64,000 nucleotides of DNA from Escherichia coli. GTDB lineage: Bacteria > Pseudomonadota > Gammaproteobacteria > Enterobacterales > Enterobacteriaceae. The stretch is from the NCBI GenBank assembly GCA_025336685.1, contig GCA_025336685.1_4717.1; one strand, given 5' to 3'. Of the stretch, positions 15,751 through 53,173 are shown piece after piece. Position numbers and translations under genes: made by a program. The notes beneath the pieces are model-generated. The model did no database searches. It was not told the DNA's origin and was given only the letters and a program-made list of their open reading frames with translations. Every line of letters starts with the position of its first letter. Within the stretch, counting starts at the first letter, position 1.

Positions 15751-15759
15751 GTAATATAG
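15751..15759 (-). promoter_or_regulatory. promoter-like motif GGNCTATATTACC (copy 1)
   Basis: Exact 9-mer CTATATTAC on minus strand with GG two bases upstream, about 125 nt upstream of the 15627 start; same motif recurs at 23736, 40045 and 53165. Confidence 0.35.
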
Positions 15760-15762
15760 ACC

Positions 15763-16560
15763 TCAACTTTTTTCCAATAATGCCGCAACGTTCCGCGCGA
15801 AACGAATAACTTTGTAATTGCGGGTTTGTTTGACATCTTCTCCATCACTATCATCTTCGGACGGATCTTCCCACATGAAGTCTTGTTCGTCCGCTTTCTG
15901 TAAGTAGTGGTATAACTGCACCATGCTGCGTGCGGTTGGAGAGATAGCGCGAAGTTCGTCTAAATCTTCATCGGTAAGCAGAACATGCGGTGAACGCAGT
16001 GGTTCCATTGCCGTATTACACAGCAGACGAATAAGCAGATCGACACACGGAATAACGGAACTTGGTGAGGCGATTTCTGGGTGTAGTGTATAACCCCAGT
16101 ACACGCTGTTAAAATAGGCCAATACCGCAGGTAGTGAAGGATGTTCCATCACACGACCAATTTGCTGTCTTACAATAGATGCACGATCGTTCAGTACATC
16201 GAGAGTAATTTGTTGCGGTTCCATAACAGCGAGTGACATACCGTACGCATCGGCTACGCCAAGGATTTCATGAAGAGCCGAACGCTCTTCTTCTGCGGAT
16301 GTTGTCCCGATCGCTTTACGTCCAGCAAGTTCGATTAGCATCGGTGAAACAGTTTCTTTAACCTCGTTTAAAGAAGCCTGGTAAGCATGTTTGTGAAGGT
16401 ACAGTGTCCACGCTAATGCGCGCTCAGCTGCATGAAGCAGATCGACATAAGACTGTTCTTGATAGCATGGTCCGTACACGCTCACCGCAAGCTTGGTGGC
16501 TTTCTCGGAAGCTTGCATAATAGCATCAGGTGATTTAGGCATATCGCGTTCTTCTTGCAT
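15763..16560 (-). CDS. hypothetical protein (265 aa)
   Basis: ORF track. Confidence 0.5.
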   Translation of the reverse strand: MQEERDMPKSPDAIMQASEKATKLAVSVYGPCYQEQSYVDLLHAAERALAWTLYLHKHAYQASLNEVKETVSPMLIELAGRKAIGTTSAEEERSALHEILGVADAYGMSLAVMEPQQITLDVLNDRASIVRQQIGRVMEHPSLPAVLAYFNSVYWGYTLHPEIASPSSVIPCVDLLIRLLCNTAMEPLRSPHVLLTDEDLDELRAISPTARSMVQLYHYLQKADEQDFMWEDPSEDDSDGEDVKQTRNYKVIRFARNVAALLEKS

Positions 16561-16662
16561 CTTTTAAATTCCTACTTAACAATAAAGTTTATATACGGCG
16601 TATGTATCCGTAGAATAATGAGTTCTGGTAAGATCTTACATCAAAATGACGGCATAAAAAGT

Positions 16663-16690
16663 ACCTCCTTACCCATGTGGGTAAGGAGGT
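16663..16690 (-). terminator. hairpin terminator (ACCTCCTTACC / GGTAAGGAGGT) followed on minus strand by T5
   Basis: Read directly; downstream of the minus-strand gene 16842..17651, inside a 280-nt non-coding gap. Confidence 0.55.
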
Positions 16691-16841
16691 TCGTCCATCA
16701 CGACGGAAGGACGTTATGTGACGCGGTGTCCATAACGGCCCTGGTAGCAGGCATTAAAAAGATAACAAAAGGATGTAAGTTGAGCTAAACCACCTAAATA
16801 CGGTAACGATTACTTCCGTACACAATATAACGTAACATCTT

Positions 16842-17651
16842 TTACCACTGATTAAAGCTGCCCGCTTTAACGATGTCACAACGCAGATGGTTACATAACT
16901 GATCCAGGAAGACAACCGGACTGTCACCGGACAACATGGCCAGTGCGTGCTGACCGCCAGAACGAACAACCAGATCATCAACCATTGGCGCAGTAATCGG
17001 GAGATCGTACGCGTCCATGATTGCTTTGGCTTCCTGTTCTACGTCTTTCTGAAACCCTTCCATCGTCGGAGAGTCATATTTGGTTGCAAACTCGATCCCA
17101 GGCAAGTTAACGTAATCGTAAGTCATCACGCGGGTCATAACGCGACGGCGCTCACGTTGCCAGATCTGAGGATCGGTTAACGCACGAACCGAAAAACACA
17201 CGTTCACCAGAGGCGTTTCAAAATCCTTACGTAACGCATCACCGTACGGACCACAAGGAATAACGTCCCCCATCACCATCACGACAGGACGACCACGACG
17301 ATCGCGTCCTGCTTCTTCCAACCAAATCTTAGAAAAGCAATGACTCACTTTGGTTTCTTCGATTCGTAACGCTCGCTGTAAAAAGCTGGTGGCATCCTGA
17401 CCGATCTCTGGTTTAGGGTGACCGTATTCACCTTTCAGCGAACGATTGCGTGCGTTTGTTTGCAGTAAGCTGTTTTCCAGGAACAACGGTTTCGAACGCT
17501 CAAGTTCGTAATATTCTTCGGTATTGTTAAAACAGTTAAACCCACCGATAACACAGGTGTAGGCACCGTCAGCGTTAGGACGGATAATACCTTTTTTATT
17601 CACACCGAGATAACTGGTGCAAACAAGATTACTAATTGGTGGTTGCATCAT
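16842..17651 (-). CDS. hypothetical protein (269 aa)
   Basis: ORF track. Confidence 0.5.
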   Translation of the reverse strand: MMQPPISNLVCTSYLGVNKKGIIRPNADGAYTCVIGGFNCFNNTEEYYELERSKPLFLENSLLQTNARNRSLKGEYGHPKPEIGQDATSFLQRALRIEETKVSHCFSKIWLEEAGRDRRGRPVVMVMGDVIPCGPYGDALRKDFETPLVNVCFSVRALTDPQIWQRERRRVMTRVMTYDYVNLPGIEFATKYDSPTMEGFQKDVEQEAKAIMDAYDLPITAPMVDDLVVRSGGQHALAMLSGDSPVVFLDQLCNHLRCDIVKAGSFNQW

Positions 17652-17729
17652 AACCCCTTTATAAGCAACTGAATGAAAAACGTTACCTTCCCGCTTTTTA
17701 TATCAAGAAGGCGACACGTAAGCGTTATA

Positions 17730-18461: not shown

Positions 18462-18462
18462 A

Positions 18463-19173
18463 TCACCCCCTCAGAATCGCTTCTGTTTCGCTGATCGTAT
18501 CCGCAGGATAAACCAAACTACTGTCGATTGCGTTATTCACGTAACCACCCATTAAGTTGGTGATGGTGTTTGTACCACTATCGATAATGTTTCGTAATCC
18601 GATGTCGATGGCTTTTAAGGTGCTGCGTTCCTCATCCGAAAGTAAACGCCACGCTCGACGACGATCGTTGGGGTCACGTGTGGTGATAGAAGCCAGAACA
18701 GAATAGATGCTGCTGTCTGCGTTCAGTTTAACACCCGCCAATTTCGCTGACGTGTAGAGCAGCTGATATTTTTCTTTTTCGGTATACCACCATGGCACTT
18801 TACCGAGCGTATAGATCTCGTTATACATCAGCCATGGGAAAGAGTTTCGCATCACGACATCGGTTGACACCAACACCGTGTCGCCGGGAAGAAATACAAA
18901 TTCGTAAAACGGCTGACCATCCATGGTAATCTCACGGATGTCAGATGGGTCGATATGGAGCTGAGTCAATGCGTGGCTGACACCATACTGACCATCGGGA
19001 AGAATAATCGGGCAGCACGCACAAACCCGGTTCTCACTCCCGATGATAGATAAACCCAATCCCTCGTAACGGACGGGCGTCAGAATCGAACACCCGCCAC
19101 GAGTAACAACAGATTTATCTTCTTGTATGTCCCAGTCCGCAAGCACCGCAGCACCGTTGCGGACAAGCGCCAT
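18463..19173 (-). CDS. hypothetical protein (236 aa)
   Basis: ORF track; tightly packed with neighbours. Confidence 0.5.
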   Translation of the reverse strand: MALVRNGAAVLADWDIQEDKSVVTRGGCSILTPVRYEGLGLSIIGSENRVCACCPIILPDGQYGVSHALTQLHIDPSDIREITMDGQPFYEFVFLPGDTVLVSTDVVMRNSFPWLMYNEIYTLGKVPWWYTEKEKYQLLYTSAKLAGVKLNADSSIYSVLASITTRDPNDRRRAWRLLSDEERSTLKAIDIGLRNIIDSGTNTITNLMGGYVNNAIDSSLVYPADTISETEAILRG

Positions 19174-20930: not shown

Positions 20931-20962
20931 TCACTTTTCCTTTTAATGTCAGAGCATCGCAT

Positions 20963-20980: not shown

Positions 20981-21005
20981 AGGTACTGCGTTCAGCGAAA
21001 TAAAC

Positions 21006-21040
21006 GAGCAGGGGCATGAAGCCCCCTGCTCTTATTTAGC
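21006..21040 (-). terminator. hairpin terminator (GAGCAGGGGC ... GCCCCCTGCTC) with T-rich tail on minus strand
   Basis: Read directly; immediately downstream of the minus-strand gene 21032..22255. Confidence 0.5.
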
Positions 21041-22255
21041 GTCGTTAAAGTAAATATCAACAGCTCGTTCCGTTGCGTAGAGGAGACCAAGATTCACAGT
21101 CCCAACCACTTCCGGTGAACCGATGATACGGTTAGCGATACTGGTGCCACTGAAGATAGCATCAAGGGTGTGCCCGTCTTCGGTTTTGTTCACACCATGA
21201 CCCACGGAAGAGACAACGGATTTCGCTTGTGCTGCGAAGGTACCCTTATCACCCATCCCCGCACCAAGGTCGTAACGCATGAAAATACGGATGGCGATCT
21301 GGTTCTCGCCTAACGGATTACCGTCTATTCTCACGTTACTGTTGTTGATACGCCCCGTCGTTGCTTCATTGAGTTTCAGTTCCTTGACGCGTTTAGCTCG
21401 CGCTTTATCTGCGTCACCGACGAGCGCCGCCATGGTTTCACTCATATCCTCAATCTGAGCGCGGTACAGCACATCGATCTGTACAACTTCACCATGAACG
21501 TCAGCACGTGGGTTATACTGACTCATACGACGTAATGCTTCAACGGCTTCCTGACTCTCATCACTCAGATCAGTTGCGATCGGTTCTTCCAGTGTTGCAA
21601 GAATAGTTCGAGGTTCAACATGATCGCCGATTTTTACGAGACCACGAATGTTGAGATGGGCGTCAACAATGAGCGTGCGGCTCTTAATCGATGGTGTTAC
21701 GAGACGATCGGCAAGATTGTCGAAGATATACGAACTGTCCTCGTGAGTCTCTGGAATATCCAGAATACCGACAAGAGACAGAACACCTGCGCGCCAAACA
21801 ACCTGACCTGGGTTCCACCAGTCGCGTTTAAAATAAAGACGATGGAAAACTACCACATCTTGATCCTTAACGCGATCCCCAACTTTATAATCGGTAATGA
21901 GGTCATGCGGATAATACTTACCTGGTCCTTTCCCGATTATCGTACCGAGTTGGAAAACCTCTTCTCCTAACTCTGGATCATCGTATTGTATCGTAAGCGC
22001 AGTTTTGGTGACCTTCTTCACAACACCATCGCCTTGGGCGGCAGCTGCGAAGAGTTTACCAACGCGATGCGCGATAACGGTCTCGCCACCAGTACGCCAT
22101 GGTTGTACATCGTAACCTTCAGCAGCAATCATGCGGTTGTGTTGGATGCCTATAAATACGAGACGCTTTGGCGGAATCCAGCAAAATACATTTACTGTGC
22201 GTCCGGATTGTTCAGATAAGGTCGTTAATCTTATCCCGGAGGCGATGATAGGCAC
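21032..22255 (-). CDS. putative RNA polymerase beta-like subunit fragment (middle segment)
   Basis: 407 aa; GDKGTFAAQAKSVV resembles beta GDKxAGRHGNKGV and a following G-T-x-x-D-x-I segment resembles beta PVDIVLNPLGVPSRMNIGQ (weak, by eye); GTG start preceded by GGGAGG SD. Confidence 0.3.
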   Translation of the reverse strand: MPIIASGIRLTTLSEQSGRTVNVFCWIPPKRLVFIGIQHNRMIAAEGYDVQPWRTGGETVIAHRVGKLFAAAAQGDGVVKKVTKTALTIQYDDPELGEEVFQLGTIIGKGPGKYYPHDLITDYKVGDRVKDQDVVVFHRLYFKRDWWNPGQVVWRAGVLSLVGILDIPETHEDSSYIFDNLADRLVTPSIKSRTLIVDAHLNIRGLVKIGDHVEPRTILATLEEPIATDLSDESQEAVEALRRMSQYNPRADVHGEVVQIDVLYRAQIEDMSETMAALVGDADKARAKRVKELKLNEATTGRINNSNVRIDGNPLGENQIAIRIFMRYDLGAGMGDKGTFAAQAKSVVSSVGHGVNKTEDGHTLDAIFSGTSIANRIIGSPEVVGTVNLGLLYATERAVDIYFNDAK

Positions 22256-22483
22256 ACCGCCTCCCGCTTACGCTCTCACGTAAGAGCAGACTATATCACA
22301 TCTCGTCTTAGGCTTGTTTTCACAAGTCAAACGGTGCTTCTTCAGCACCTCAACGAGAGTTCACTTCTTCCCAGCGCATCCAGCGCCATTCTCTTATCCA
22401 AGGAGAATGCCTCACTCGAGGGGTACAGGGGGATGAATCCCTTAGTCGTTGAACCGTCACCCTAGAACGTTTCACAACGATCC
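22256..22483 (-). ncRNA. structured non-coding region between HNH gene and beta-like fragment (possible group I intron 3' portion)
   Basis: 228 nt with stops in all frames of interest; on the minus-strand transcript at least four short hairpins (GGUGCU-GAAGAA-GCACC, CUUGU-GAAAA-ACAAG, CUUACG-UGAGAG-CGUAAG, CAUUCUC-N-GAGAAUG); catalytic-core elements not identified. Confidence 0.2.
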
Positions 22484-23695
22484 TTAGGCGATTGGCTGCG
22501 GATTACCCTTGGCCTGCGGACCACGAACTTTTGTCGCGGTCAACTCTTCATTTTTAAAGCCTGCTTTACGAGCAATACGTCTCGCTTCTCGCACGTCTAA
22601 CGTTTCCGTTTCCGCTTTGGCTGAAGGCAGCATTGGGCGTCCTCGCAATTCAATGAATCTCGTCCATACGTCACCGTATAAACGGACCCGCTCTTTGTAA
22701 ACAGAATAGTAAATATAACGTTTTCCGTCAGGGAATTTAGTCATCCCATCGGACTTCAAACGGTAATTGAGTAACGTAGTAGATATACCCATTTCTTCGG
22801 CGCAATCAACGGCTGAAAGGTACAATAGCGGTACATCATTTTCAGGAATGACGACAATAGCACGTTTGTTGGTTGTCTTCTCCAACTCCAGGATACTATC
22901 TTCGACTTCCCGCCACGGCGTCTCATCAGTAACCCATTTAACTTGATAACAGCCATTAACGACAGGTTGGTTCTTGTCGTTAACGTACATCGACGCAGTG
23001 GGTAACTTAACACCAATGTGATTAGCGAATTCAGTCAATGATTCGAAAAGATGAATCTCTTTTGTTATCGTTGACCTTGCAATCACGCCCTTACTCCCCG
23101 TATCCGTCAACGTTGCTAACTCGTATTTGGTAGGAATACGCCACGGTTCATCGCCGTAATCTTTGCGGTACTGCTTACGTTCAGGAAACGCTCGCTGTTT
23201 ACCTCTATAGACACGATGATGAATGAAGTCGATATTCACACCAAGATCGCGTGCCGCTTCCGTCATGGATGGATATCTAGTTACAACACCGGTGTCAACA
23301 TCACGAACCTGAATAGGTTTACCGTAAGCAGCAATAGAACGTTTACGCATGTTCATAATGCGGGCATGCTGATTGTTCTCTTTCTGTGTAACCCATTCAA
23401 GATTGTCATTCTCTGTGTTACCGTCGGGATCAAGGTAGTTATTAAGTCTGTTGCCGTCCTTGTGGTTCACATGGAGCAAATGCGCATCATCGATGTTACG
23501 GAACGTTAACATTAGAAGTCTATGCATGGAACGGTAAACCAATGTTCCATCGTGACCTCGAAACGAATAACGATAATACCCAGCAATGATGATGGGCAAA
23601 TATTCAAACTTCGATTCCTTGTTACGCAATGTTCCATCTATGGATATCTCCAGGAACGGGAATTCCGGTACGGTCTTAAATACCTTCTCACTCAT
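22484..23695 (-). CDS. HNH homing endonuclease with NUMOD/IENR-like DNA-binding repeats
   Basis: 403 aa; HNH motif HHVNHKDGNRLNNYLDPDGNTENDNLEWVTQKENNQHA; three helix-turn-helix-like repeats (YPSMTEAARDLGVN, FESLTEFANHIGVK, YLSAVDCAEEMGIS); AGAGGA SD; own promoter-like motif upstream. Confidence 0.85.
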   Translation of the reverse strand: MSEKVFKTVPEFPFLEISIDGTLRNKESKFEYLPIIIAGYYRYSFRGHDGTLVYRSMHRLLMLTFRNIDDAHLLHVNHKDGNRLNNYLDPDGNTENDNLEWVTQKENNQHARIMNMRKRSIAAYGKPIQVRDVDTGVVTRYPSMTEAARDLGVNIDFIHHRVYRGKQRAFPERKQYRKDYGDEPWRIPTKYELATLTDTGSKGVIARSTITKEIHLFESLTEFANHIGVKLPTASMYVNDKNQPVVNGCYQVKWVTDETPWREVEDSILELEKTTNKRAIVVIPENDVPLLYLSAVDCAEEMGISTTLLNYRLKSDGMTKFPDGKRYIYYSVYKERVRLYGDVWTRFIELRGRPMLPSAKAETETLDVREARRIARKAGFKNEELTATKVRGPQAKGNPQPIA

Positions 23696-23735
23696 TGACT
23701 ATATTCCTCTTGTGCAGTGATATTAACTACACTTT

Positions 23736-23744
23736 CGTAATATA
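23736..23744 (-). promoter_or_regulatory. promoter-like motif GGNCTATATTACC (copy 2)
   Basis: Exact CTATATTAC on minus strand about 40 nt upstream of the HNH ATG, in the 75-nt gap after the 1069 aa ORF. Confidence 0.35.
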
Positions 23745-23770
23745 GCCTTAATTCTGTTTACATTGAAGCC

Positions 23771-26700
23771 TTAATCATCTCTATCAGCAGCAGGTACTGC
23801 AAGTGCTGATGTACTCATTATTGACGAGCTACCATCCGTTTTCTCGTCGTAGGGTTTCGTTTCACCGTATACAGACACAATGTTTGCGTTAGGTGCGAGG
23901 TAAGCAGAAATACCTACATCCCCACTATCCTTCGTACCTTCGGATACAACACCAATGTCCGACTTGTCGTATTCACGATCGCGTGCGCGTCGAAGCGATG
24001 TCTTTGAACGCCCCCCGATACCGGTCATCGTTGCTTCTTCACCCTGCTTGATATCCAGCATCGGGTTGGTTTCATCGATCACGATGGAAGCGCTGTCGTC
24101 GAGAATTTGGTTCCAGACACTCACTGGACTGATTGAGATTTTCTGGCGGTTTCCTTGACTGCTGTTCTCGTTTTGACGAATAGCGCTAACCAGGTCCTTA
24201 TACACCAGTTCGGCGAACTTATCGTACGTTTTAAAACGTTGGTAGTTCACATCGTTCGTGTTAGGTGCCCAGTCATCCAGAAGCAGTTCAACAGCACGCA
24301 GTAACAACATGGCGAAATCGGTAGGTTCTCCCATGTTCTGTAGCAACGTACGGCTCACCGGATCGATGAAAAGACGCTCCATGAGTTCAAGTTCGCGTAA
24401 ATGGCGAACCTTAAGTCCAGCACCATCGACAACGTTAAAATAGATATCTCGATTGTCAAAAGCACCGCGAGCGTAACCGATGTAGTTACGGTACTCGTTG
24501 AACCCACCCAACAGCAACGTCGTCATGCGATCGTCTTTACTGAAGATCAAACTTTCGTCGTCAAAGCTCACCGCGAATTCATCGGGTGCTAGACCCATAC
24601 GAGAGCCGCGAGGTACCGTACGATAGTTCGCTTTAAGGTGTTCTAATAACGGGGTAAGCCCACCCAGATAACTTAGAACAACACCGACCGGAATACGTAC
24701 ACCCATGAATTCAAGATCGGCGGCTTCGATCGGCATCTTAGCCGCATTGATACCGAAGAAATCAGGGAACGTCCCTACAGGTGTTGGTGTTTGTCCTGAC
24801 TGACAGATATAGAGCTGATTGCGTTCATCGATTGCTAAGAATTCACCCAACGTGTTACGTGCAAACGTCAGGAGCCCTTCGGCTAACTGTTCGTTGAACC
24901 GATCTTCCCCAATGAACTCCGGCAATGTCTTTATATCGAGACGTATATCCCAATCAGCGAATTGGATTTGGGTATAGTTGCGTGCAAGCACTGCGAAGTA
25001 ATACGGGACTTTGACAGCCGGATCAAAGACGTTACCGCGTTTTAACGTGGTTAAGGGTGAGGACTTATCGTAATACATCGCCGTAAGTTGACGTGTTAGC
25101 CAACGACCCGCATTATTAACGACGCGCTCTGAACGTTTAACAAACACCTTACCGTAGGCGGTACTCAATGCAACTTCGGATGACGATACCTTTCTAATAG
25201 GTTTATCGACGCGTTGTTTACGCATCCGGTACTTGATGCCGTTAACGACATAAATGCCGTCCTTACGAACCTTCGGTAACATCACCGGGAACGTGGTCGG
25301 GACACCGCCTACGGGGGCCAGTTTAATCGTGATGACTTGATAATCCCCCATCACGTCAACAACATCTTCGACTTTATATCCCGTGACTGGGTAACCTGCC
25401 TGCTGTACCGCAACAACAGCAGCTGCGATGTCCTTTTGCATTACGTGTTCGACGTAATGTTTATCCCACACCGCAAGCGTCGATTTACATAAGCTCTTAT
25501 CGACGATAACGTCCGCTTCCGGCATAACCTTTGCGGGAGCTAATTTCGCGGCTTTTGGTTTAACTTCAACATACTCAGCAAGTGTTAATCCAGAACCGTC
25601 GGGTGCTTCGATTTCATGGATGGCGTCAGCGTTACGCATCGCTGCTTTATATTGGACGCCACTTAACTGCCCCGCATCCGCCAGATCGCCCGCGCGTACC
25701 AACACCGCATCCGATAACGACTGAATATACTCACCGTGTGTTTTTGGTAACGTTGTCGCGTCAAAGACATCAACCTTTTCTTCTTCGGTATCGTCAGTAA
25801 CGACTTCGAAGAGATCGTCGGTAATGTCCTGATCTTCATCAGGTTGGAAATCCGGTTGTACTTCTACCCCGGGTACTTCACGGACATCTTCGAACGTGCG
25901 TTCTACAACGGCGTTCCATGCATCAGCGTCATCGTCTTCATCCGACCCACCGACCAACTCCGCTTCTAACTCATCGGGGTCAAGAACAGTGGCCAGATCC
26001 TCACCGTTAGGAAGCACGACGTCACGATCGTCGTACTCCGCATCCGGGTTGTCGGTAAGAATATCTCGCTCTTGACGAAGAACCTGTTCCTCTTCTTGTT
26101 TCTGTTCTTCTTCATTCGCGCTCTGCGACCACAAACGTGTTACCGCCATCATCCAACGACGTTGGAAGGTTTCAAGTGTCGTTTTGTCGAGTTCTTCCCC
26201 TTCCTTTACAAGCCCGGTACGCCATTCCTCCAGCAGGCCGAGATTCAACGTAAAGAAGTACACACCGTCTGTAAATACAACGTTAAGCTTATCCAGCGTG
26301 GCCCTGTCTAACGAAGCCATCGTGCTGTTCTCACGATCGGTTCCCAACCAGCGGAAGAAGTCAAAGAACGACAGCTCCTCCGGTGTGGCGAAATTCATGA
26401 GGTTGTTACGGGTCGGTGCCTGTTGTGTGGTACGCATCAACGAAATCTTCGGCAATGTTGACGGTAAACGGAACAACAAAAAGTGTTGACGATCGCTTTG
26501 TTGTGCGATTTCGTTGGCTTTCGACCAAATTGTTTTACGTACGTTGAACCATTCATCATACCAACGGGTGAGCGTTGGACGATAGATGTACATGTGGTTA
26601 AGATGCGCGTAGTTAGCAACGATCTGAGCGTTGATGTTTTTCTCCACCGTACTTAGATCGGTAACCAAACGAAAACGACGATGCGATGCACGATAATCCA

Positions 26701-26980
26701 ATTTCGCTCGTGGAAGTTGGAATCGTTGATCGCGTCGAGGTGCGCCTTGTTTGGTTGCGAGATCATCAGCAAACGAAATCCATAGTTGAGCATTTTCTTT
26801 ACTCAGCATGTATTCGTTTTCTGGAGGACCTATCAATGAAGGATCCGTTGCGGTGTAATGATAGACAGCATAACGCGGCAGCTGCAATAGCTGCACTAAA
26901 CGTAATCTTGGTGATAGTAGCTCTTGGTAGCGTCTGACACCGAACTGTCGGTAGTAATCAAGGTATTTAAGTTTTGCCAT
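23771..26980 (-). CDS. putative RNA polymerase beta-like subunit, N-terminal fragment
   Basis: 1069 aa; by-eye matches to bacterial beta: [17 protein letters not shown] vs [33 protein letters not shown] vs [34 protein letters not shown] vs YGFLETPYRKVTDG near the C-terminus. Confidence 0.45.
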   Translation of the reverse strand: [1069 protein letters not shown]

Positions 26981-26983
26981 GGG

Positions 26984-28630
26984 TTAGGCTCCACGAGGTC
27001 CCGTTAAGTTGCGTAATAGGAACGCAACCGTATCGTAACCAATATCAATGTTGAATTTATTTTTACCACTTACCCAGAAAGCTCGCTTCTTGTGCGAGTT
27101 GGTAATTTCGTCAATGGCTTCCATGGAATAAAGAACGTTAACCGAGACCGTATCACCATCAAAGTCCCCGCCAAGTCCGGCGAGGTATGGGGCAGGGACA
27201 ATAGTCGTTTCTACGAACGAAGCATTAGGTAACCAGTCAGGGTATTCCCATGCGATAAATCGTTCATCCGTTATTGGTTCCCAGTTACTATCCAGTTCGG
27301 TTTTCGGTTTTGCGGCGACGGTTGTACGCGCATAACAGGTTAACGGGATAACGGATTGCATACCCGATACCGGATAACGTGTTACCATTGCAGCCAGGTT
27401 ATTCCAGTACTTATATCCGGCGATGTACACTAATTCGGTATACGTGATGGGGTGAACATCCGCACCAGGTTTATTCAACATTTCTGGGGGTAATTCACTC
27501 ATACCACGGAACAGTCGAAACGAATCATTGTTCACATAGACGAGGCAAAGATAACGTCCATTAACCATGATAGGTTCGTTACGCACGCCTGGATCGCTTA
27601 AGGTGTTCAATAAACGTTCTATTCCGTCCCATGTCGTAAAGTCATCGATGGTGTCTGGATCAAGCGTGACGCGTTCACGTTCCATCGTTTCGGTATCGAT
27701 AAGTTCAACTTCTGTAACATCACGGACAAATATTTCCTGCAAAATCCCCGTACGTAACGCATGTTGCGTCACGGGTAGGGCGGCTTTGCTCATCTGGTAT
27801 AACCCTAACTGAACTGCAGTACAGGAAGGCTGGTTGGGCGATCCTAGTACCTCCGTTGTGGGGTTAATTGCCGAAATAACGTTACGGGTTGAGTTCCAAA
27901 CACGACGTGAGCCGAACTTCCCTTGAAAGATCCCTTTCTTACCTTGGAACATATCCAACAACAAAGCGTAGATATCGTTAAATGTTCTCTGTAAGCTCCA
28001 GCGTTGGCCGTCGTAAACGGGATCGGAATAATCTTTTAATCCATCGGGGACGGTGTTAGAAATTGCAAGGAAACGACGATACAACTCCGTGATTTCTTGC
28101 TCGCTTTCATACCCGCCTTCTTTTACTTCTATTTCACGTAAGCCCGCAGGTAAAACCAGTAAGTGACGGGTCATCGCTTTGAACATGTTCTCTTCGACAA
28201 CTTTAATTCGTAGCTCTCGTTGAGCTGAACCCGTTGAAACGAACTTGATATCCGCGACGTGTTGTGCAAAGAACCCGTACCCTGTCTGTCCTGTTAACGC
28301 ATCAGACGCAACGAAATCGCGTTGTTCAGGATCCCACCGAGCGTACGCCTTCCCCGACATGATATCACCATAGAGGTGTTTTAATCGAATGAGGCGGTCG
28401 TAAATGACAGGATGCAGGATTTCAACTTTGCATTCAATCACCGCAAATCGACGGTCTCGATCTTCACTACCTGCACTACCAAAGATGGTGTAAGAATAGA
28501 AACCATCATCGTGGAAATTACCGGTGCTTGGGTCACGAATGCTCATGCTCGTGATCTTGGGGAGAAAACGTAACTGTTGTTTATCGAGGTGTAAAATACT
28601 AATATTAAACGGCTCTCTGACTTTAGCCAT
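26984..28630 (-). CDS. RNA polymerase beta'-like subunit, N-terminal fragment
   Basis: Catalytic motif GDFDGDTVSVNV (beta' NADFDGDQMAVHV) near C-terminus; QGKFGSRRVWNSTRNVISAINP resembles beta' GKRVDYSGRSVIVVGP; ORF track starts at 28672 but ATG at 28630 has an AGAGGAG SD. Confidence 0.65.
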   Translation of the reverse strand: MAKVREPFNISILHLDKQQLRFLPKITSMSIRDPSTGNFHDDGFYSYTIFGSAGSEDRDRRFAVIECKVEILHPVIYDRLIRLKHLYGDIMSGKAYARWDPEQRDFVASDALTGQTGYGFFAQHVADIKFVSTGSAQRELRIKVVEENMFKAMTRHLLVLPAGLREIEVKEGGYESEQEITELYRRFLAISNTVPDGLKDYSDPVYDGQRWSLQRTFNDIYALLLDMFQGKKGIFQGKFGSRRVWNSTRNVISAINPTTEVLGSPNQPSCTAVQLGLYQMSKAALPVTQHALRTGILQEIFVRDVTEVELIDTETMERERVTLDPDTIDDFTTWDGIERLLNTLSDPGVRNEPIMVNGRYLCLVYVNNDSFRLFRGMSELPPEMLNKPGADVHPITYTELVYIAGYKYWNNLAAMVTRYPVSGMQSVIPLTCYARTTVAAKPKTELDSNWEPITDERFIAWEYPDWLPNASFVETTIVPAPYLAGLGGDFDGDTVSVNVLYSMEAIDEITNSHKKRAFWVSGKNKFNIDIGYDTVAFLLRNLTGPRGA

Positions 28631-28782
28631 GGAGACACTCCTCTTTACCACCACCGGCTGCGGCGGTATCATCTGAACACACGAGAGACGTAATGGGTGA
28701 TGGCGTCACCCATCGCTTCCTTGCTTGAGGCGAGGAAGTTATTAGGTTACGTACCTGCCTGATTTTATCAGGTGGGCGATGT

Positions 28783-38846: not shown

Positions 38847-38885
38847 CACGTCCTCCTGAAAAAGAAAAAAGAAATACGGCATAAA

Positions 38886-38911
38886 GCCTACCCACACAAT
38901 GGTGGGTAGGC
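38886..38911 (-). terminator. hairpin (GCCTACCCAC / GTGGGTAGGC) followed on minus strand by a T-rich run
   Basis: Read directly; downstream of minus gene 38929..39486. Confidence 0.5.
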
Positions 38912-38928: not shown

Positions 38929-39486
38929 TTAAACTTCTTCGTTTTCTGAACCTAATGATTCAGCATCTGGATCGTCAACAGGAATTGTTGCGTCAAAATA
39001 CCGTTTCGTATGCGTGGTCGTATATCCTACACTATCTGTGATGGAAATCGTAAACGTGACTTCTCTCGCACGGATTAAGCGTAGTTTATTCATGAAGTTA
39101 CGGAACGGCATCGATCCCCGATTCAACTCCTTAATGACGTTTCCTCGAATACTGGAAATGTCTTTATTCGTTTTATCAGGATGTCGTTTCTTCACATCAC
39201 GCATATGTCGGGTAATATACGAATTGAGCTGATTTGCGCCGATCCCTCTCTCCGTATAAATCTGCAACAGGAACTCCGTAAGGAAATCCTGTCTACCCGT
39301 AGGCGTCCAGAAATTGTTACCGTGATTGTAGTTAGTCGCTCGTCCTCGATTACTTTGAGGATTTTCATCATCGTTTTCGTCACAACGCTTAAGCGGATTA
39401 ATGCGTGCTCGGAAAGAGACTTCATTATATTTATTTGTCATAATACACCAGTGTACTGACTGAGTGCGAAGGTTAGGAGTTCGCAA
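38929..39486 (-). CDS. hypothetical protein (185 aa)
   Basis: ORF track. Confidence 0.45.
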   Translation of the reverse strand: MRTPNLRTQSVHWCIMTNKYNEVSFRARINPLKRCDENDDENPQSNRGRATNYNHGNNFWTPTGRQDFLTEFLLQIYTERGIGANQLNSYITRHMRDVKKRHPDKTNKDISSIRGNVIKELNRGSMPFRNFMNKLRLIRAREVTFTISITDSVGYTTTHTKRYFDATIPVDDPDAESLGSENEEV

Positions 39487-39953
39487 CAGTCTCTCGCTAG
39501 TTTCCTTGTTTTGCGTAATCCATAAGCCGCATCCAAATCGTCACGTTCTGCCAGCGCGTCTAACCACGTCGCAAGTATGCGTCCATACTCGATAACGTCA
39601 CGCATGAGAACGTCGAACTGGATAACACGACCATCGGCATCAGCAAGCCAACGATTGAATGTGATTTGTGGTGCTAGTATTGCATATGTTCTCTCCTCTA
39701 ATGCTATTATGTTTATGTTGCCTTCGTTATCGAACGCTTGATGCCAACGGCGAAGGTCAAGCATCAACGACTCAGCGTCCATATACCACAACGGTAAATA
39801 CGTTTTACGTGCAACGCGTATATCGTAGATGTTGTGAACCCAGGACGTTGTTTTATAAAGCAACAAGAGTTCGTTTAACCGTTGCCTATCATCTTGAAAC
39901 GTCTTCCTTTTATAACGTTGGAATGCACGCCTCAAGAAAAAGCGATGTAACAT
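39438..39953 (-). CDS. hypothetical protein (171 aa)
   Basis: ORF track; CTATATTAC motif about 90 nt upstream. Confidence 0.45.
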   Translation of the reverse strand: MLHRFFLRRAFQRYKRKTFQDDRQRLNELLLLYKTTSWVHNIYDIRVARKTYLPLWYMDAESLMLDLRRWHQAFDNEGNINIIALEERTYAILAPQITFNRWLADADGRVIQFDVLMRDVIEYGRILATWLDALAERDDLDAAYGLRKTRKLARDCCELLTFALSQYTGVL

Positions 39954-40044
39954 GGCATCACCTATGTATCATTCTTGCAGGCATCAATGAAACCATCACA
40001 AGAAGGTAACGTTATACGTCGCCTCCATGACAGTCATCATGAAG

Positions 40045-40053
40045 GTAATATAG
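40045..40053 (-). promoter_or_regulatory. promoter-like motif GGNCTATATTACC (copy 3)
   Basis: Exact CTATATTAC on minus strand upstream of the 39953 start. Confidence 0.3.
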
Positions 40054-40086: not shown

Positions 40087-40716
40087 ATGAGCGAATACGG
40101 TGTTGTCCCCGTAGATGATGAACCGCAAGAGGCACCCGATAAATTCGAGGTCCGTCTTGACGAAACCCGTAATATCCGTCAACGATTTATTCAACGTCTT
40201 GAAATGCTGTTAGATAGCGAATTCAAAGATTTTGAGCGTAACCCCGGTGTAGATAATAAAGCCATTGTTGACGTCGAAAACGTCGACCGAATAGGTAAGC
40301 TGTTGTTGAAATCGTTGGGTGATAACGATAAAGTCGACTTAACGTTGAAACGTATCAGCGCCGACCAGGCTATGAACGACAGCGCATTGAAAACAGCACA
40401 GGCCCTAACCGAAACCATGCTGCGCCGCTTAGGTCAGATAGATGAACATCCTCTCGCAGCAGGGGCTGTTTACGATGGCGAAGTCGTGAAGTCAGTTACG
40501 CCTGAAGAACGCGATCGTCGACTTGGTTTTGCATCGTTGGAAGAGTTTAATAGCAAGGAGTTTTCACCAGGCGTTCTCATCCAGGGACGTGTCGAAGAAA
40601 CCAGTGATGCTTTCTACGCTAGAATGGCTCAACTGACGGAGTCGGTTCGTGAGGAGGTGTCTCAGAAGATGGCTGCAGATCATCAGTCTTCGGAGGCGTC
40701 ACACGAGGAGGAATAA
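40087..40716 (+). CDS. acidic hypothetical protein (209 aa)
   Basis: Lone plus-strand ORF in a minus-strand block; very Asp/Glu-rich; 3' end overlaps the convergent 40619..41407 ORF by about 100 nt. Confidence 0.45.
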   Translation: MSEYGVVPVDDEPQEAPDKFEVRLDETRNIRQRFIQRLEMLLDSEFKDFERNPGVDNKAIVDVENVDRIGKLLLKSLGDNDKVDLTLKRISADQAMNDSALKTAQALTETMLRRLGQIDEHPLAAGAVYDGEVVKSVTPEERDRRLGFASLEEFNSKEFSPGVLIQGRVEETSDAFYARMAQLTESVREEVSQKMAADHQSSEASHEEE

Positions 40717-41409: not shown

Positions 41410-42111
41410 TTACTCTCCAGCTTCACCGGTTAACATCTGCATATCGGGAGACGTTTTAATTTTCTTCTCGTACTCTTTTGTTTGTTTGAATACCAATTCA
41501 CCGATTTCTTCCAATTCTTCAACGGTGACGGTATGCAAATAAAGCAGCGGAATAATCCAGGTATTCGCACGAAGCATGTCCTGAATATCGTCAACGGTGG
41601 GTAACTCCGTAAAGAACTGTTCGTCTACCGCAAATAAATCCCGTGCGATACCATCCACCAGTTTATGATCGCTTTCATGGATCCATGCAAAACTTTCAGC
41701 AAGATGGTCAACAAGCATACTGATGTCATCGTCCGTTGAGAACACCGTACGACGAACGTGTGTTGTGAGGTCCATCGTAAAACCCATTAACGAAGGGGTT
41801 TCTTCAGAACGGAGTTCACGCCAAAGACGAAGCATGTTTTCGGGGATAAACAAATCATGGATGAACGTTACGCTGAATTTCGTAATCCAATCACGAATTG
41901 TCGCACCTCTGGAATACTGTTGCGGTGGAGAATACAAATACACCCAACGTTTCGTAAACGCGATAACTTCCTTTCGCATCGCCGCATCTAAAACAAGCAC
42001 GTAACGATCGGAAGCAAGCTCTTCTAACAAAAGCTCGAACGATGTATCGCTCTCTGGGGAGAACGATCGTTTTATTTCTGCGATACGTCGTGATAGCCGA
42101 CTACGTAACAT
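41410..42111 (-). CDS. hypothetical protein (233 aa)
   Basis: ORF track. Confidence 0.5.
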   Translation of the reverse strand: MLRSRLSRRIAEIKRSFSPESDTSFELLLEELASDRYVLVLDAAMRKEVIAFTKRWVYLYSPPQQYSRGATIRDWITKFSVTFIHDLFIPENMLRLWRELRSEETPSLMGFTMDLTTHVRRTVFSTDDDISMLVDHLAESFAWIHESDHKLVDGIARDLFAVDEQFFTELPTVDDIQDMLRANTWIIPLLYLHTVTVEELEEIGELVFKQTKEYEKKIKTSPDMQMLTGEAGE

Positions 42112-42113
42112 AA

Positions 42114-42788
42114 TTAGCCCTCATCAAGGTTATTCTGGAGATGCATTGCGGTGAGAATAACACCAACTGCCGAAACCGATTTTGCCTTGCTGTCTTCGGG
42201 TAGCTGTTCCAAGCTTACGGTACCTGTTTCTAACAGCATGCGGTTCATCGCGTTGAACTTCTTATCGTCGCCACCACGAGCCTGCATTAACTCTCGGTTC
42301 ACGTTCGGCATCGATCGTCCTAACGTCGCTTGCATTTCCGGCTGACTCCAAGTGGAACCTTTACTATCACCCGTCGGCTGATTGGTGAGCTGGTCCTTGG
42401 TGTTGTTGTTTTTCGGAATCGATATTTTAGCACTCAACGTTTCGGCTTGTCGGCGGTTTGGAATCAGGTACAATCTGGTTGGACGATCACGAAGCACCAA
42501 TTGTCCTGTTTTCTGATCGGTGAGATAAACGCGTTGGAAGAAAGGGAAACCGTATTTCTTGCCGACTTCCAGTGCGCGTTTTATCGTCACCTCGTTTTTG
42601 TTCATATTGGGTACCCAGATGGGTAGAATCTCTTTCTTATCCCGACATAAACGCATATACGCATCAAACGTCTCATCATCGATTTCAGCAAAACGTTTTT
42701 TGTAAATAGCGTAGGTCGGACTCGATCCCCCCACCAGGTCTTTGATATACCCAAGAATGAATTTTTCTGCTGCAGCGCGGTTGGACAT
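42114..42788 (-). CDS. hypothetical protein (224 aa)
   Basis: ORF track. Confidence 0.5.
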   Translation of the reverse strand: MSNRAAAEKFILGYIKDLVGGSSPTYAIYKKRFAEIDDETFDAYMRLCRDKKEILPIWVPNMNKNEVTIKRALEVGKKYGFPFFQRVYLTDQKTGQLVLRDRPTRLYLIPNRRQAETLSAKISIPKNNNTKDQLTNQPTGDSKGSTWSQPEMQATLGRSMPNVNRELMQARGGDDKKFNAMNRMLLETGTVSLEQLPEDSKAKSVSAVGVILTAMHLQNNLDEG

Positions 42789-45957: not shown

Positions 45958-45964
45958 CATAATA

Positions 45965-47980: not shown

Positions 47981-48018
47981 TAATCATTGTCCGTATGATA
48001 GCCCAAAGTTGTACGGTA

Positions 48019-48570: not shown

Positions 48571-48588
48571 GCGTGTGTCCTTGATAGT

Positions 48589-49965
48589 ATGAAATTTCCA
48601 ATACAACTTAACCGAGGACGTCGAATGATTAGTATTTTTGGTTTTTATACGTACAAAGGGTACGCTAATAACCACCCAAAAACCACGGCGAAATTCGGTG
48701 AGTTCAGCCAGCATAGTGCTACGTTCAGTCGCGAGATCGGCATCTATACCAACACGGCGTACGCACGTACGACCCTGCTGGTATTGAATGCAGAAAACGA
48801 AGCTGGTGAAGCACAAACGCTGGATGACAACACCGCAAATCAGATTCTTCAGGTTGGTCAATGGTTGCTGGAAAAAGCCTCATCGGGCGAAATCCAGGAT
48901 GACAGAGACCAGGTTATCAGCTACCTAAAAGACGACTTCACAACGTATTTGGATTCTATCGACATCCCGACACCCACCACCGATGGGAAAGTCTATCTAC
49001 CGGCGTGGATCAGTTTCAAGATAACCGCCACGGGTGATGTTGTCAAGATATGGCTGTCTGATAGCGTATTCCAAAGTCAATATCCAAAATACGAATATGA
49101 AGTCGTTCCTCCTGTTCCTAAGGATCAGTTAGACACCTTCTTCGAAGATCTGGCAACGTTGAAGAAACTGGTTGACAGTCGAAGCAGCGAGAAACTGACC
49201 GAAGAAATCAACGAGGTGCGCGACCAATTCCCAGACACACAATTGTGGACGAAAACCTATAAAGCGTACGATTACACCGACGATTCGAAGTACATTGATA
49301 CCGATTGGACGGTGATTATCTACGGTGCAGCAGGTAACAATATTGATAATATCAAGGAGTTCCTGCAAAACTGGATTCTTAGCAATAGTACGCATGGACG
49401 CCCAGACTGGGAAATCGTTCTGCCTGATCTTTTTATTCCGACAGAACACATCTTCATCCCAATCTGGAACCGCCACAGCGCTCCGGAGATGACCAATCAG
49501 GCACGTATTTATAGCCCCATCTTCGATGATTCGTTGATGGATACCTACCTGAAAAACTTTGCTGATGGTTACGGTGAAACCGCCGAAGTCCGTAAATCGC
49601 TTCAAGCGGTGCCGACGCTGTGGCGTTCGATCGGTTTCTTAAGTGTTGGTAACTCACGTAACCGTGATGGTAAACTTAAGTTCTACGATCGTTGGCCGCA
49701 ATACGCACTCATCAGCACAACCAGCATCGATATTAACCGTATCGACGACGCGACACGTGAATTCATCACGTTCACTTACGAGATGCTGAAACTGGCGGAA
49801 TCGCTCACTGAAGACGACCCGGTACCGTTGGGTTATAGTCGTGTTACGCGTGGTAGCAATAACTTCTTAGCGAAAAGCCACAACGATGTTCAGTATCTCT
49901 TCTTAACAAAAGAAGCGTTCCTGAAGAAAATGCCGGATGAAGCCGACACACCTGTTGGAGGTTGA
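48589..49965 (+). CDS. hypothetical protein (458 aa)
   Basis: ORF track; 4-nt ATGA overlap with downstream 49962..50594. Confidence 0.55.
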   Translation: MKFPIQLNRGRRMISIFGFYTYKGYANNHPKTTAKFGEFSQHSATFSREIGIYTNTAYARTTLLVLNAENEAGEAQTLDDNTANQILQVGQWLLEKASSGEIQDDRDQVISYLKDDFTTYLDSIDIPTPTTDGKVYLPAWISFKITATGDVVKIWLSDSVFQSQYPKYEYEVVPPVPKDQLDTFFEDLATLKKLVDSRSSEKLTEEINEVRDQFPDTQLWTKTYKAYDYTDDSKYIDTDWTVIIYGAAGNNIDNIKEFLQNWILSNSTHGRPDWEIVLPDLFIPTEHIFIPIWNRHSAPEMTNQARIYSPIFDDSLMDTYLKNFADGYGETAEVRKSLQAVPTLWRSIGFLSVGNSRNRDGKLKFYDRWPQYALISTTSIDINRIDDATREFITFTYEMLKLAESLTEDDPVPLGYSRVTRGSNNFLAKSHNDVQYLFLTKEAFLKKMPDEADTPVGG

Positions 49966-50594: not shown

Positions 50595-50600
50595 CATATT

Positions 50601-50640
50601 CCCTCCTCCTTCCCATGTTGGGTTGGAGGAGGGTTATGCC
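50601..50640 (+). terminator. hairpin (CCCTCCTCC / GGAGGAGGG, loop TTCCCATGTTGGGTT) after plus gene
   Basis: Read directly; paralog of 37741..37772. Confidence 0.5.
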
Positions 50641-50647
50641 GTCAAGC

Positions 50648-50695
50648 AAAAAAAAAAAAAATGATAGCCACGGACCCTCCAATGAAGGAGGGTCG
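50648..50695 (-). terminator. intrinsic terminator for minus strand (hairpin GACCCTCC / GGAGGGTC followed by T14)
   Basis: A14 run at 50648..50661 on plus strand is a T14 on the minus strand directly 3' of the hairpin, downstream of gene 50707..51411. Confidence 0.7.
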
Positions 50696-50706
50696 TGACC
50701 GTCAGT

Positions 50707-51411
50707 TTAGGATGTAGATAATCTCGCGTACTTCTGGCGAACATGGTTCTTACGGCGAACTTCGTCATCCTCGTCACGCCATTCGAGGTAAGCAACGAAT
50801 CGACGTAACTGTGCTGCTGTCATCGTTGACGATCGGTCTTCTACATCTAGAACGACGTAACGAACGCCACCAACATCATCGCAATCAACGTAATTGAATA
50901 CCATAAGGCCATCACCGTATTCAACGACGGTAACTTCGAACCGTTTCTCGAACAAATAAAACAGTTCCGATTCGATGATCATCGGAATGACGCATATTTC
51001 AGCACGATCGAGGATTTCCATCATCACCCGTAACGCGCGAGGAGTATGGCGAGCGAACTGGCCGTTAAAACGTTGTCTCATTGCTTGTTCCACGCCATCT
51101 GTTTTTGTTCCAAACCAAGGACGTATTACAGATTTCGGTGGTGTAAGACGAAAGCGATATGCTTGTATAAACAACAGAATATCAGCGACGTTAGGAAATT
51201 CTTCCTGGTCTTCGTATATCTTGCGGATAATATCCGGAATCGTAACCATCAAGTATTTCTTATCGCCTCCCACTTTCTCGAGATTAGCAATATGTCCTTC
51301 TACTACCGGCTGGTAAACGAAATTATACCAATGACGGTATCTTGCAGCACGCTGGTAATTCGGGATAAAATTAAGAACAACATTCACTGCACGTTTTAAC
51401 GGGTTCATCAA
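50707..51411 (-). CDS. hypothetical protein (234 aa)
   Basis: ORF track. Confidence 0.5.
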   Translation of the reverse strand: MMNPLKRAVNVVLNFIPNYQRAARYRHWYNFVYQPVVEGHIANLEKVGGDKKYLMVTIPDIIRKIYEDQEEFPNVADILLFIQAYRFRLTPPKSVIRPWFGTKTDGVEQAMRQRFNGQFARHTPRALRVMMEILDRAEICVIPMIIESELFYLFEKRFEVTVVEYGDGLMVFNYVDCDDVGGVRYVVLDVEDRSSTMTAAQLRRFVAYLEWRDEDDEVRRKNHVRQKYARLSTS

Positions 51412-51422
51412 AAGGTTCCTTC

Positions 51423-51857
51423 TTATGTTCTAATATGCACATCGTCAATCCCCTCGGTAATCCAGCCGATGGGAAGGACAATCGTTGTTATCGTGTTATG
51501 GGTGTAGGGATTAAGAAAATGGAAATAGTAATTTTTGTTAGACTGTTCAATGCGTAGCTCGAGCTGCGCATCTTCAGGTAACCGTAACCAAGCACCGTAC
51601 AGCTCATTAAACTTACGCTGAATTTTACCCGGGTTCATTGGAACCCTACGACCACGGTGGCGTAGCTGACGTAATGATTCAATCAAACACTCAGAGATAC
51701 CCATTACCGTTCCGTTATCGCTTGCATCAATAACGATGAACTCATGTGACCCGCGACCATGATAGAATCCAGCAACAAGCGCAACGGCGACAACGACAAC
51801 CGTACCGATACCTACGTACCAATAGTAAACGTCCATAACAGCCTCACTTATGCCCAA
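51423..51857 (-). CDS. membrane protein, N-terminal TM helix (144 aa)
   Basis: Hydrophobic segment VGIGTVVVVAVALVAGF near N-terminus. Confidence 0.45.
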   Translation of the reverse strand: MGISEAVMDVYYWYVGIGTVVVVAVALVAGFYHGRGSHEFIVIDASDNGTVMGISECLIESLRQLRHRGRRVPMNPGKIQRKFNELYGAWLRLPEDAQLELRIEQSNKNYYFHFLNPYTHNTITTIVLPIGWITEGIDDVHIRT

Positions 51858-52423
51858 TAGTCGGCGAGCGGTTTCACCTTATTAATGGGTAACTGTACTT
51901 TACCGATGTTCTCTACATCCGCATCAGCGTAGAGAACGATTTTATCGTCGTCTCTTTCCCAACGTATAATAAATCGACCAGGAAGAAGATTACCCTGTTC
52001 AAGAGATGCTGTAACCTGTTGTGTTAAAACAGACAACCAAGCAGGCATCAGTGTTGCAATATCTAAGTCATTTGACCACTCAGCACGTTGCTCCACTGGA
52101 CGCAACATACGTTGGACGGTGCGTTGAACTGTTGCGGTGATATAGCCTTTATCTTCGTCACTGATTGGATCCGGACGAGACACGAAACGTTCAGCAGGCT
52201 TACGGGAAATATGTTCATGTAGTTTGATGAGTGGTGTTGTCATAGTACTCGCTCCATCAGAATGTAATTGGGTAACCCGCAGGGTTGTCTGCATGTTATT
52301 CAGAAGCGCAAAAGCGCCATAAACAACAACGATACCAAGTACAGCCAAAACAGAAATCATTAACGTGTATTGCATTGTCATCTTCCCCTCATACGCATCT
52401 TGAAGATTAGTTAAAAACAACAA
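51848..52423 (-). CDS. membrane protein, N-terminal signal-anchor-like TM helix (191 aa)
   Basis: Hydrophobic segment LMISVLAVLGIVVVYGAFALL; overlaps downstream gene by 10 nt. Confidence 0.45.
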   Translation of the reverse strand: MLFLTNLQDAYEGKMTMQYTLMISVLAVLGIVVVYGAFALLNNMQTTLRVTQLHSDGASTMTTPLIKLHEHISRKPAERFVSRPDPISDEDKGYITATVQRTVQRMLRPVEQRAEWSNDLDIATLMPAWLSVLTQQVTASLEQGNLLPGRFIIRWERDDDKIVLYADADVENIGKVQLPINKVKPLADYWA

Positions 52424-52476
52424 AAGAAAAAACGATATAAAGCAAGGTCCTCTGATATCAGAGGACCTTGGATCAA

Positions 52477-53133
52477 TTAGCTTGCAGCATCTTCATTTGT
52501 ATCAGGTTTGCTTCCCCCTAACAAACCGTCAAACAGACCTGTATGTTTCAGGTAGAAGATAGCGATAGCGCCCATCGCTGCTGCGCTCGTCGCCGTTAAC
52601 GCAACCCCAGCACGATACTGCCATTTACGGTCAGGCTTTTGATCAAGCGCCATACGACGCATGTATTCAGCCTCTGCTTCATTCCGATGAATTTCGGATT
52701 CGGCCAGACGGGCTAAGGTATCGCGGTCAAGGTTATCATAACGTACGTTCATGGAAGTTTCCTCTTGTTTGGAAGTTGATTGCTTAGTGGATTCTTGGTC
52801 AACAGTCGTTTCAGTTGGTTCAAACGGCTGGTTGTTCATTTTCTGATCTTTATTGGTCATGATAGACTCCTTCGATTTTTGAGACGAAATTGATTTAAAC
52901 CATCGTGGATGGCGGTATTCGGTTTTACATGTACAGTTAAGTTTCTCGTGCATGAAAGCGTAAAAACGTTTTGCACCTACACGTAAGGCTTTCAGCATTA
53001 TCCATCCACGAGCACTCAAACGGTGTAGCTGTTGCGGTATGTCGAGTTTCCTAGCCAAGCGAAAGTATCTCTCAATCACTTCGATAGGAAACCATTGTTG
53101 TTCCGCATCGGTGAGACTGAAAGTCTTATCCAT
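52477..53133 (-). CDS. protein with C-terminal TM helix (about 218 aa)
   Basis: ORF track start 53160 is GTG; first ATG at 53133 (MDKTFS...); C-terminal hydrophobic segment AGVALTATSAAAMGAIAIFYL. Confidence 0.45.
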   Translation of the reverse strand: MDKTFSLTDAEQQWFPIEVIERYFRLARKLDIPQQLHRLSARGWIMLKALRVGAKRFYAFMHEKLNCTCKTEYRHPRWFKSISSQKSKESIMTNKDQKMNNQPFEPTETTVDQESTKQSTSKQEETSMNVRYDNLDRDTLARLAESEIHRNEAEAEYMRRMALDQKPDRKWQYRAGVALTATSAAAMGAIAIFYLKHTGLFDGLLGGSKPDTNEDAAS

Positions 53134-53164
53134 GATTGAAATCTCGCTGGCTTGCTTCACCTAG

Positions 53165-53173
53165 GTAATATAG
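53165..53173 (-). promoter_or_regulatory. promoter-like motif GGNCTATATTACC (copy 4)
   Basis: Exact CTATATTAC on minus strand about 35 nt upstream of the 53133 ATG, in a divergent intergenic region. Confidence 0.3.

Follow-up and report, generated by a model that had tools for sequence, protein, structure and literature searches.

A recurrent directional element resembling jumbo-phage early promoters in a Goslar-like genome from an Escherichia coli assembly

The 64,000-nucleotide (nt) stretch of DNA analysed here (the window; contig GCA_025336685.1_4717.1) carries a short directional element that recurs in front of small genes, and it is the probable role of this element as an early promoter of a jumbo phage that concerns us. 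The window aligns collinearly, at ~95% identity, with the genome of Escherichia phage Goslar (MK327938 / NC_048170, 237,307 bp), a nucleus-forming jumbo phage that belongs to the Chimalliviridae and with which the window is compared throughout. The core of the element, the 9-mer CTATATTAC, has exactly four copies in the window, all on the minus strand (15751-15759, 23737-23745, 40045-40053 and 53165-53173); dinucleotide-preserving shuffles gave a mean of 0.38 copies, and none of 100 reached four. The initial annotation had placed every copy on the minus strand and had estimated that less than one random copy should occur in 64 kb, both of which stand, as do its coordinates 15751, 40045 and 53165; its remaining coordinate, 23736, should read 23737.

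When the window copies are aligned with Goslar DNA, the 9-mer proves to form the core of a ~40-bp directional element, TAAT..AAAA..TTTCAcGGC-TATATTAC-yTA.GTGA, and not to be part of a 13-bp motif as had been proposed. An A/T-rich region with TAAT or ATTG near -35 is followed by an A or T tract near -25 and then by TTTCAcGGC; the downstream half comprises a near-invariant TAYATTAC at about -14 to -7, four to five variable bases, and a conserved T and G, with TG found 6-7 nt past the core at every site. The flanks noted in the initial annotation (GG upstream, CC after) were roughly right, in that the 13-mer GGNCTATATTACC is exact at 15750 and 40044, but it has one mismatch at 53164 (CGGCTATATTACC) and two at 23736 (AGGCTATATTACG), the latter two copies having GG immediately adjacent to C. 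The expression TAYATTAC-N5-TG has five matches in the window (0.24 expected), each of them in non-coding DNA of the minus strand. A position weight matrix (PWM) was built from the aligned window and Goslar sites and judged against first-order Markov genomes, whose maximum was ~15.6 bits; it scores four window sites at 36-51 bits and 12 Goslar sites at 26-57 bits, i.e. conservation extends past the core between non-homologous loci. One-mismatch variants of TATATTAC in the window number 50, with 54 expected, and were rejected as additional sites because this is the chance frequency. A fifth exact TATATTAC, at 39212-39219 on the minus strand, lies inside the coding sequence of the Goslar gp201 homologue, has neither the conserved flanks nor a PWM match, and is a chance occurrence outside the promoter set.

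Three of the early-promoter-like sites, here P1, P3 and P4, lie on the minus strand between genes, match the expression given above and have orthologous sites in Goslar. P1 (15740-15782; core 15751-15758; predicted +1 G at 15744; PWM score 45.0) is flanked by the stop of open reading frame (ORF) 15763-16560 and by ORF 15148-15627, for which it predicts a leader of 117 nt, and it is identical in Goslar at 201926-201968. The first gene after P1 (15148-15627, minus strand) is by homology that of Goslar gp214, which has no known function; just past it lies a strong 14-pair hairpin (15087-15117, minus strand), which is likely a terminator or attenuator of the P1 transcription unit. P3 (40034-40076; core 40045-40052; predicted +1 G at 40038; PWM score 44.2; Goslar 226677-226719) sits in the intergenic DNA that separates the divergent ORFs 39438-39953 (minus strand) and 40087-40716 (plus strand), with a predicted leader of 85 nt. 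The minus-strand genes that follow P3 are homologues of those for gp200 (39438-39953), again without known function, gp201 (38929-39486) and gp202 (37779-38897).

P4 (53154-53196; core 53165-53172; predicted +1 G at 53158) is the best match to the consensus, with a PWM score of 51.3, and its differences from the orthologous Goslar site (2549-2591) are confined to degenerate positions of the motif. It too lies in a divergent intergenic region, and its predicted leader runs for 25 nt to ATG 53133 of ORF 52477-53133 (minus strand), a homologue of Goslar_00004 with no known function. The mechanically called ORF at this position, 52477-53160, begins at GTG 53160, which precedes the predicted transcription start (53158); the true start codon is probably ATG 53133, as in the Goslar annotation (gene 00004, 1872-2528). 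A 12-pair hairpin directly after the gene (52443-52470, minus strand) matches the annotated Goslar terminator at 1841-1862 and suggests a single-gene early unit. Taken with the hairpin behind the P1 gene, it also suggests that the sites at 15744 and 53158 serve short, independent early units dispersed among the late structural genes.

A weaker fifth site of a TACATTAC subclass (1441-1483, minus strand; core 1452-1459; predicted +1 G at 1445) likewise matches the expression and lies in a divergent intergenic region, 25 nt upstream of ATG 1420 of ORF 869-1420 (minus strand), a homologue of the Goslar gp225 gene with no known function. Judged from the DNA, it is by position and orientation that this site is probably a fifth member of the set. 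Predicted leaders, counted from the conserved G to the start codon, range from 25 to 117 nt, and most contain a recognisable ribosome-binding sequence. Early genes of such phages usually have no known function, as is the case for the genes downstream of the sites described here.

The remaining exact copy, P2 (23726-23768, minus strand; core 23737-23744; predicted +1 G at 23730), differs in its setting. The initial annotation had described the copies as always intergenic, which holds for the other three; P2 is non-coding, but it lies within a probable group I intron. Window 22170-23787 is an insertion without counterpart in Goslar that splits the homologue of the gp207 gene (ORFs 23771-26980 and 21032-22255, minus strand), and it is because this entire 1.6-kb insertion is missing there that P2 has no Goslar counterpart. 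The insertion relative to Goslar, a match to Rfam RF00028 and analysis of the junctions together define a probable group I intron of ~1602 nt at 22172-23773 (minus strand), with predicted splice sites. RF00028 matches 22267-22709 over the full model (1-253) with 49.4 bits (gathering score 50) and E = 4.7e-11; at the gathering threshold Rfam gave no match in the window, and RF00028 appeared in the E-value mode only. Exon 1 would run from 26980 to 23774 and exon 2 from 22171 to 21032, with exon 1 ending in T and the insertion in G; joining 23774 to 22171 gives a protein of 1448 residues, the length of Goslar gp207, and reads DRDD|PKRLV at the proposed join, where Goslar has DRDDGKRLV.

The intron encodes a homing endonuclease of 403 residues (22484-23695, minus strand), with Pfam matches to NUMOD1 (2.5e-8), the I-TevI DNA-binding domain and HNH_3, and with PHROG 59, HNH endonuclease, at 4.7e-38. 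The P2 motif is located 17-46 nt inside the intron, and its predicted +1 lies 35 nt upstream of ATG 23695 of the endonuclease ORF. Its flanks diverge from the consensus, although GGC-TATATTAC-N4-GTG is retained, and given this divergence P2 is, as read from its bases, the least certain of the four sites. The intron is present, with the P2 core unchanged, in a third Goslar-like genome, IMGVR_UViG_3300011560_000001 (IMG/VR).

Introns of this kind sit at different places in the two phages, a probable group I intron with an HNH gene being found in the gp207 homologue of the window and in gp205 of Goslar (HNH gene gp206); the Goslar intron (211754-213798) has no counterpart in the window, nor the window intron in Goslar. 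The uninterrupted 562-residue window ORF 26984-28672 suggests that the annotated Goslar gp205 (502 residues) is truncated by the intron. In Goslar, the leader of gp206 (213710-213790, minus strand) reads CTATTAATATGAAAGTGGTAATTAAT, with a disrupted core; it resembles the intronic site of the window, CTATATTACGAAAGTGTAGTTAAT, though the endonucleases are only ~27% identical, and may be a decayed or variant promoter.

Across the complete Goslar genome, a scan of both strands for TAYATTAC-N5-TG returned 13 sites, none of them on the plus strand. Twelve lie between annotated genes (GenBank annotation) in a genome that is ~92% coding, the other lies inside an annotated ORF of 62 codons, and each of the 13 points towards a minus-strand gene whose start is 22-202 nt downstream. 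Their predicted starts are at Goslar 2553, 15053, 43252, 49718, 86691, 113783, 142786, 160777, 166055, 172964, 187625, 201930 and 226681. In all, 5/5 window sites and 12/13 Goslar sites are non-coding; in both genomes the sites are co-oriented with, and directly upstream of, presumed early genes. TAYATTAC is invariant in the 13 Goslar and five window sites, which also have extended conserved flanks. The strong promoter-like site at 49715-49744 within the annotated Goslar gene 00047 (49584-49772, 62 residues) is an observation on that annotation; the gene may be mis-called, or its true start may lie further downstream.

Four Goslar sites (15053, 43252, 49718 and 86691) form a second subclass with TACATTAC (GAC-TACATTACC-T..-TGATA), and a weaker member at Goslar 187625 corresponds to window 1445-1459, the only member in the window. 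The TACATTACC subclass has its own tightly conserved flanks, TTTCACGAC ... TGATA, and it and the GGC-TATATTAC-YTA.GTGA subclass might be distinct strength or timing classes. Two further weak PWM matches in Goslar, at 151617 (upstream of a non-virion polymerase gene) and 188940, are within the null range and were set aside as unconfirmed.

The nuclear shell gene of Goslar, chmA, is preceded at a distance of 66 nt by one of the 13 sites. Goslar chmA is expressed early, with transcripts present at 5 min and a start site placed by 5-min RNA-seq; the start-site sequence as displayed begins 91 nt upstream of the ATG and contains the motif. Scans of IMG/VR for close relatives returned Goslar itself and two Goslar-like contigs only, which are too similar for covariation or turnover to be followed, and the comparison across genera was therefore anchored on chmA. 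Upstream of chmA, TATATTAC-(6N)-G occurs in Erwinia phage Ea35-70, Klebsiella phage Eowyn and Ralstonia phage RSL2, and PhiPA3 has TATATCAC; the shell proteins of the phages compared are only ~23% identical to that of Goslar.

The initial annotation had likened the motif to the early promoters of phiKZ, and the agreement of the cores is unusually clear. The first 50 kb of the phiKZ genome contain TATATTAC seven times, always on the plus strand, always intergenic, always followed by N5-TG and always directly upstream of a plus-strand gene, that for the shell protein, gp54, included. The primary start site of phiKZ gp54 is reported to carry the early promoter motif (PMC8244752). The two shell-gene sites are nearly superimposable (TTGAAAAAAATTTCAGGGTTATATTACCTAGGTGAAT in Goslar, ATGAAAAAAATTTGAGATTTATATTACTAAATTGAAT in phiKZ), and the predicted leader is 66 nt in both. 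In jumbo phages that encode RNA polymerases, the virion polymerase reads a highly conserved AT-rich early core, ~10 nt long and located near -10, upstream of early operons (PMC7598289); transcripts of phiKZ and phiR1-37 start 6 nt past the consensus, which for AR9 has been given as AAATATATATTAT-(6N)-G (PMC5312081). The TATATTAC-N5-TG rule and the A/T tract near -20, both of which the Goslar and phiKZ sites share, fit these published early promoters (PMC7598289, PMC5312081). The DNA itself shows the motif with its statistics, where its copies lie and how they are oriented, and its identity with sites of the phiKZ type.

Subunits of the polymerase proposed to read these sites are encoded alongside them. 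The virion RNA polymerase of Goslar has five subunits, gp78, gp196, gp205, gp207 and gp210 (10.64898/2026.04.21.720040), and the window has, on its minus strand, homologues of four that were detected in Goslar virions: gp196 (42114-42788), gp205 (26984-28672, uninterrupted), gp210 (18463-19173) and the interrupted gp207. These homologues, with the 95% identity to Goslar, identify the phage as one that encodes a virion-packaged multisubunit RNA polymerase. At the boundary of the gp196 homologue and the next minus-strand gene, TATGTTAC is found at 42105-42112 (minus strand); TATG being the late-promoter core of phiKZ, this might by analogy be a late start site.

From the Goslar-like identity, the polymerase subunit genes and the match to the phiKZ core, we conclude that the CTATATTAC copies are very probably the cores of early promoters for the phage virion RNA polymerase, a reading that the initial annotation had offered as a possibility and to which, arguing by analogy with other phages, we assign a probability of about 0.88. 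In the mechanism we propose, modelled for its enzyme, start nucleotide and timing on other phages, the virion polymerase would be injected with the DNA and would transcribe early genes ahead of all phage protein synthesis. The conserved G would, by analogy with phiKZ and AR9, be the first transcribed base, and the transcripts would carry leaders of 25-117 nt into small genes without known function, two of the units ending at a strong hairpin after one gene. P2 would then give early expression of the endonuclease, independently of the late virion polymerase gene that the intron interrupts.

Several points weigh against this interpretation. The site at 1445 has a PWM score of 13-15.6, inside the null range, and with a short version of the PWM P2 scores 18.9, likewise within the null range, P2 being itself part of the training set. 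The 13 Goslar sites are few compared with the 175 of 249 genes detected by Goslar RNA-seq at 5 min, which makes long read-through operons, or further early promoters of other form, likely in Goslar. No promoter analysis for Goslar was found in the searchable literature, the Goslar RNA-seq study included, and a literature search for the string TATATTAC returned unrelated papers only. Finally, TATATT is a reasonable sigma-70 -10 hexamer, and the host polymerase could recognise naked DNA.

The last point raises the explanation that the sites are host sigma-70 promoters, with TATATT (a 5/6 match to TATAAT) as -10 element, used by E. coli RNA polymerase for early genes, which would fit their location upstream of, and co-orientation with, genes. 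The best -35 matches at 15-19 nt spacing, however, score 2-4/6, the same as random genome positions, a TGn extended -10 is absent from every site, and a sigma-70 consensus scan calls none of them. Nor does sigma-70 account for the conserved AC after the hexamer, the T and G 5-6 bases further on, or the upstream TTTCAcGGC. Transcription in related phages is independent of the host polymerase and insensitive to rifampicin (PMC13282480), and injected Goslar DNA shares its vesicle with the virion polymerase (10.1101/2023.09.20.558163). With no -35 above background and no scan calls, we rejected sigma-70 promoters as the principal explanation and consider them improbable.

We judge it just as doubtful that the copies are operators for a phage DNA-binding regulator, or middle or late promoters of the non-virion polymerase. 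An inverted repeat, TTCAC / GTGAA, surrounds the core in several copies and could suggest a dimeric binding protein, and the two subclasses (GGC-TATATTAC and GAC-TACATTACC) might reflect different factors. The repeat is lost in divergent copies, however, its arms matching at only 3/5 positions at 15744 and 40038 with no compensating changes, so that the conserved features are sequence and direction; a palindromic operator was rejected on these grounds. All copies have a single orientation relative to the downstream gene, and the core is identical to the early core of phiKZ. The late promoters of phiKZ have TATG at the start and its middle promoters TACT or an AT-rich element near -22 to -24 (PMC7598289, PMC8244752); the predicted start regions of the window sites, CTAACTGA, CTTCATGA, GAAAGTGT and CTAGGTGA, contain no TATG and no TACT element at -22.

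Least credible of all is that the copies arose by chance, or are left over from some small repeated or mobile element and do nothing in transcription. The window does have only four exact copies, with one-mismatch variants at chance frequency, but the shuffles never attained that count, placement is strictly non-coding and co-oriented in two genomes, and flanking repeat structure typical of mobile elements was not seen. In five genera, moreover, the core recurs ahead of chmA at the orthologous position, despite the divergence of their shell proteins.

With respect to the window as a whole, it crosses the junction of the Goslar record ends, window 50608-63138 corresponding to Goslar 1-12533. 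The 54 bp at 50608-50661 align to both the last and the first bases of the Goslar record, which implies that the record ends overlap and that the window reads across their junction; the Goslar record terminates in a poly-A run. The last 860 bases of the window (63139-64000) have no blastn match to Goslar, whereas the flanking 12.5 kb are 93% identical; these bases, which fall among small minus-strand ORFs, have been locally replaced or have diverged.

The overall results provide a concrete map of candidate early promoters for Goslar-type E. coli jumbo phages: Goslar contributes 13 sites and the window five, and a start is predicted for every one. Both the early infection vesicle and the phage nucleus are now studied in Goslar as a main model, and knowledge of the genes directly behind virion-polymerase promoters helps to define the immediate-early programme. 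The map may be useful for the design of reporters and of engineered phages, as well as for rereading existing RNA-seq data. More tentatively, and we regard this as a possibility rather than an expectation, the early promoter could be effectively universal across the Chimalliviridae, in which case the virion polymerases of distant genera might cross-read one another's promoters, and mobile elements, the intron-borne endonuclease of the window among them, could take a portable early promoter from phage to phage.

A promoter of this type is already known from phiKZ, AR9 and 201phi2-1, and its probable occurrence here is ordinary and will not surprise a specialist. Compared with E. coli sigma-70 promoters, the window sites share a TATAAT-like hexamer ~10 nt upstream of the likely start, but have no -35 or extended -10 element and are strongly conserved outside the positions that sigma-70 contacts. 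Pseudomonas phage 201phi2-1, likened here by description only, has an AT-rich motif ~10 bp upstream of mapped starts, with conserved regions at -10, -20 and -30, upstream of hypothetical genes (PMC11512511). Its sites are also few, six being mapped and others found by motif scan (PMC11512511); they were mapped by cappable-seq, whereas the window sites are predictions.

In Bacillus phage AR9 a virion-packaged multisubunit polymerase reads an AT-rich core that contains TATATTA, and starts at a G after six further bases (PMC5312081). The AR9 parallel extends to the intronic copy at 23737, since an early promoter and gene g190 lie inside an intron of the late gene g189 (PMC5312081). AR9 differs in that it is not a chimallivirus, has uracil-containing DNA, and has a core whose last base is T instead of C and which reaches further upstream. 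The closest comparison is with phiKZ, in which 28-32 early promoters read by the virion RNA polymerase have been mapped (Ceyssens et al. 2014, as cited in PMC7598289; PMC8244752). The phiKZ spacer before the core is A-rich (TTTAAACAG), in contrast to the G+C-containing TTTCAcGGC of the Goslar-like phages, and its ~30 sites have mapped activity, whereas Goslar has 13 predicted sites and the second subclass, TACATTACC. Common to both are the identical 8-nt core TATATTAC, the T and G 6-7 nt further on and the A/T tract near -20, as well as the placement of non-coding, co-oriented sites immediately before small early genes and the shell gene.

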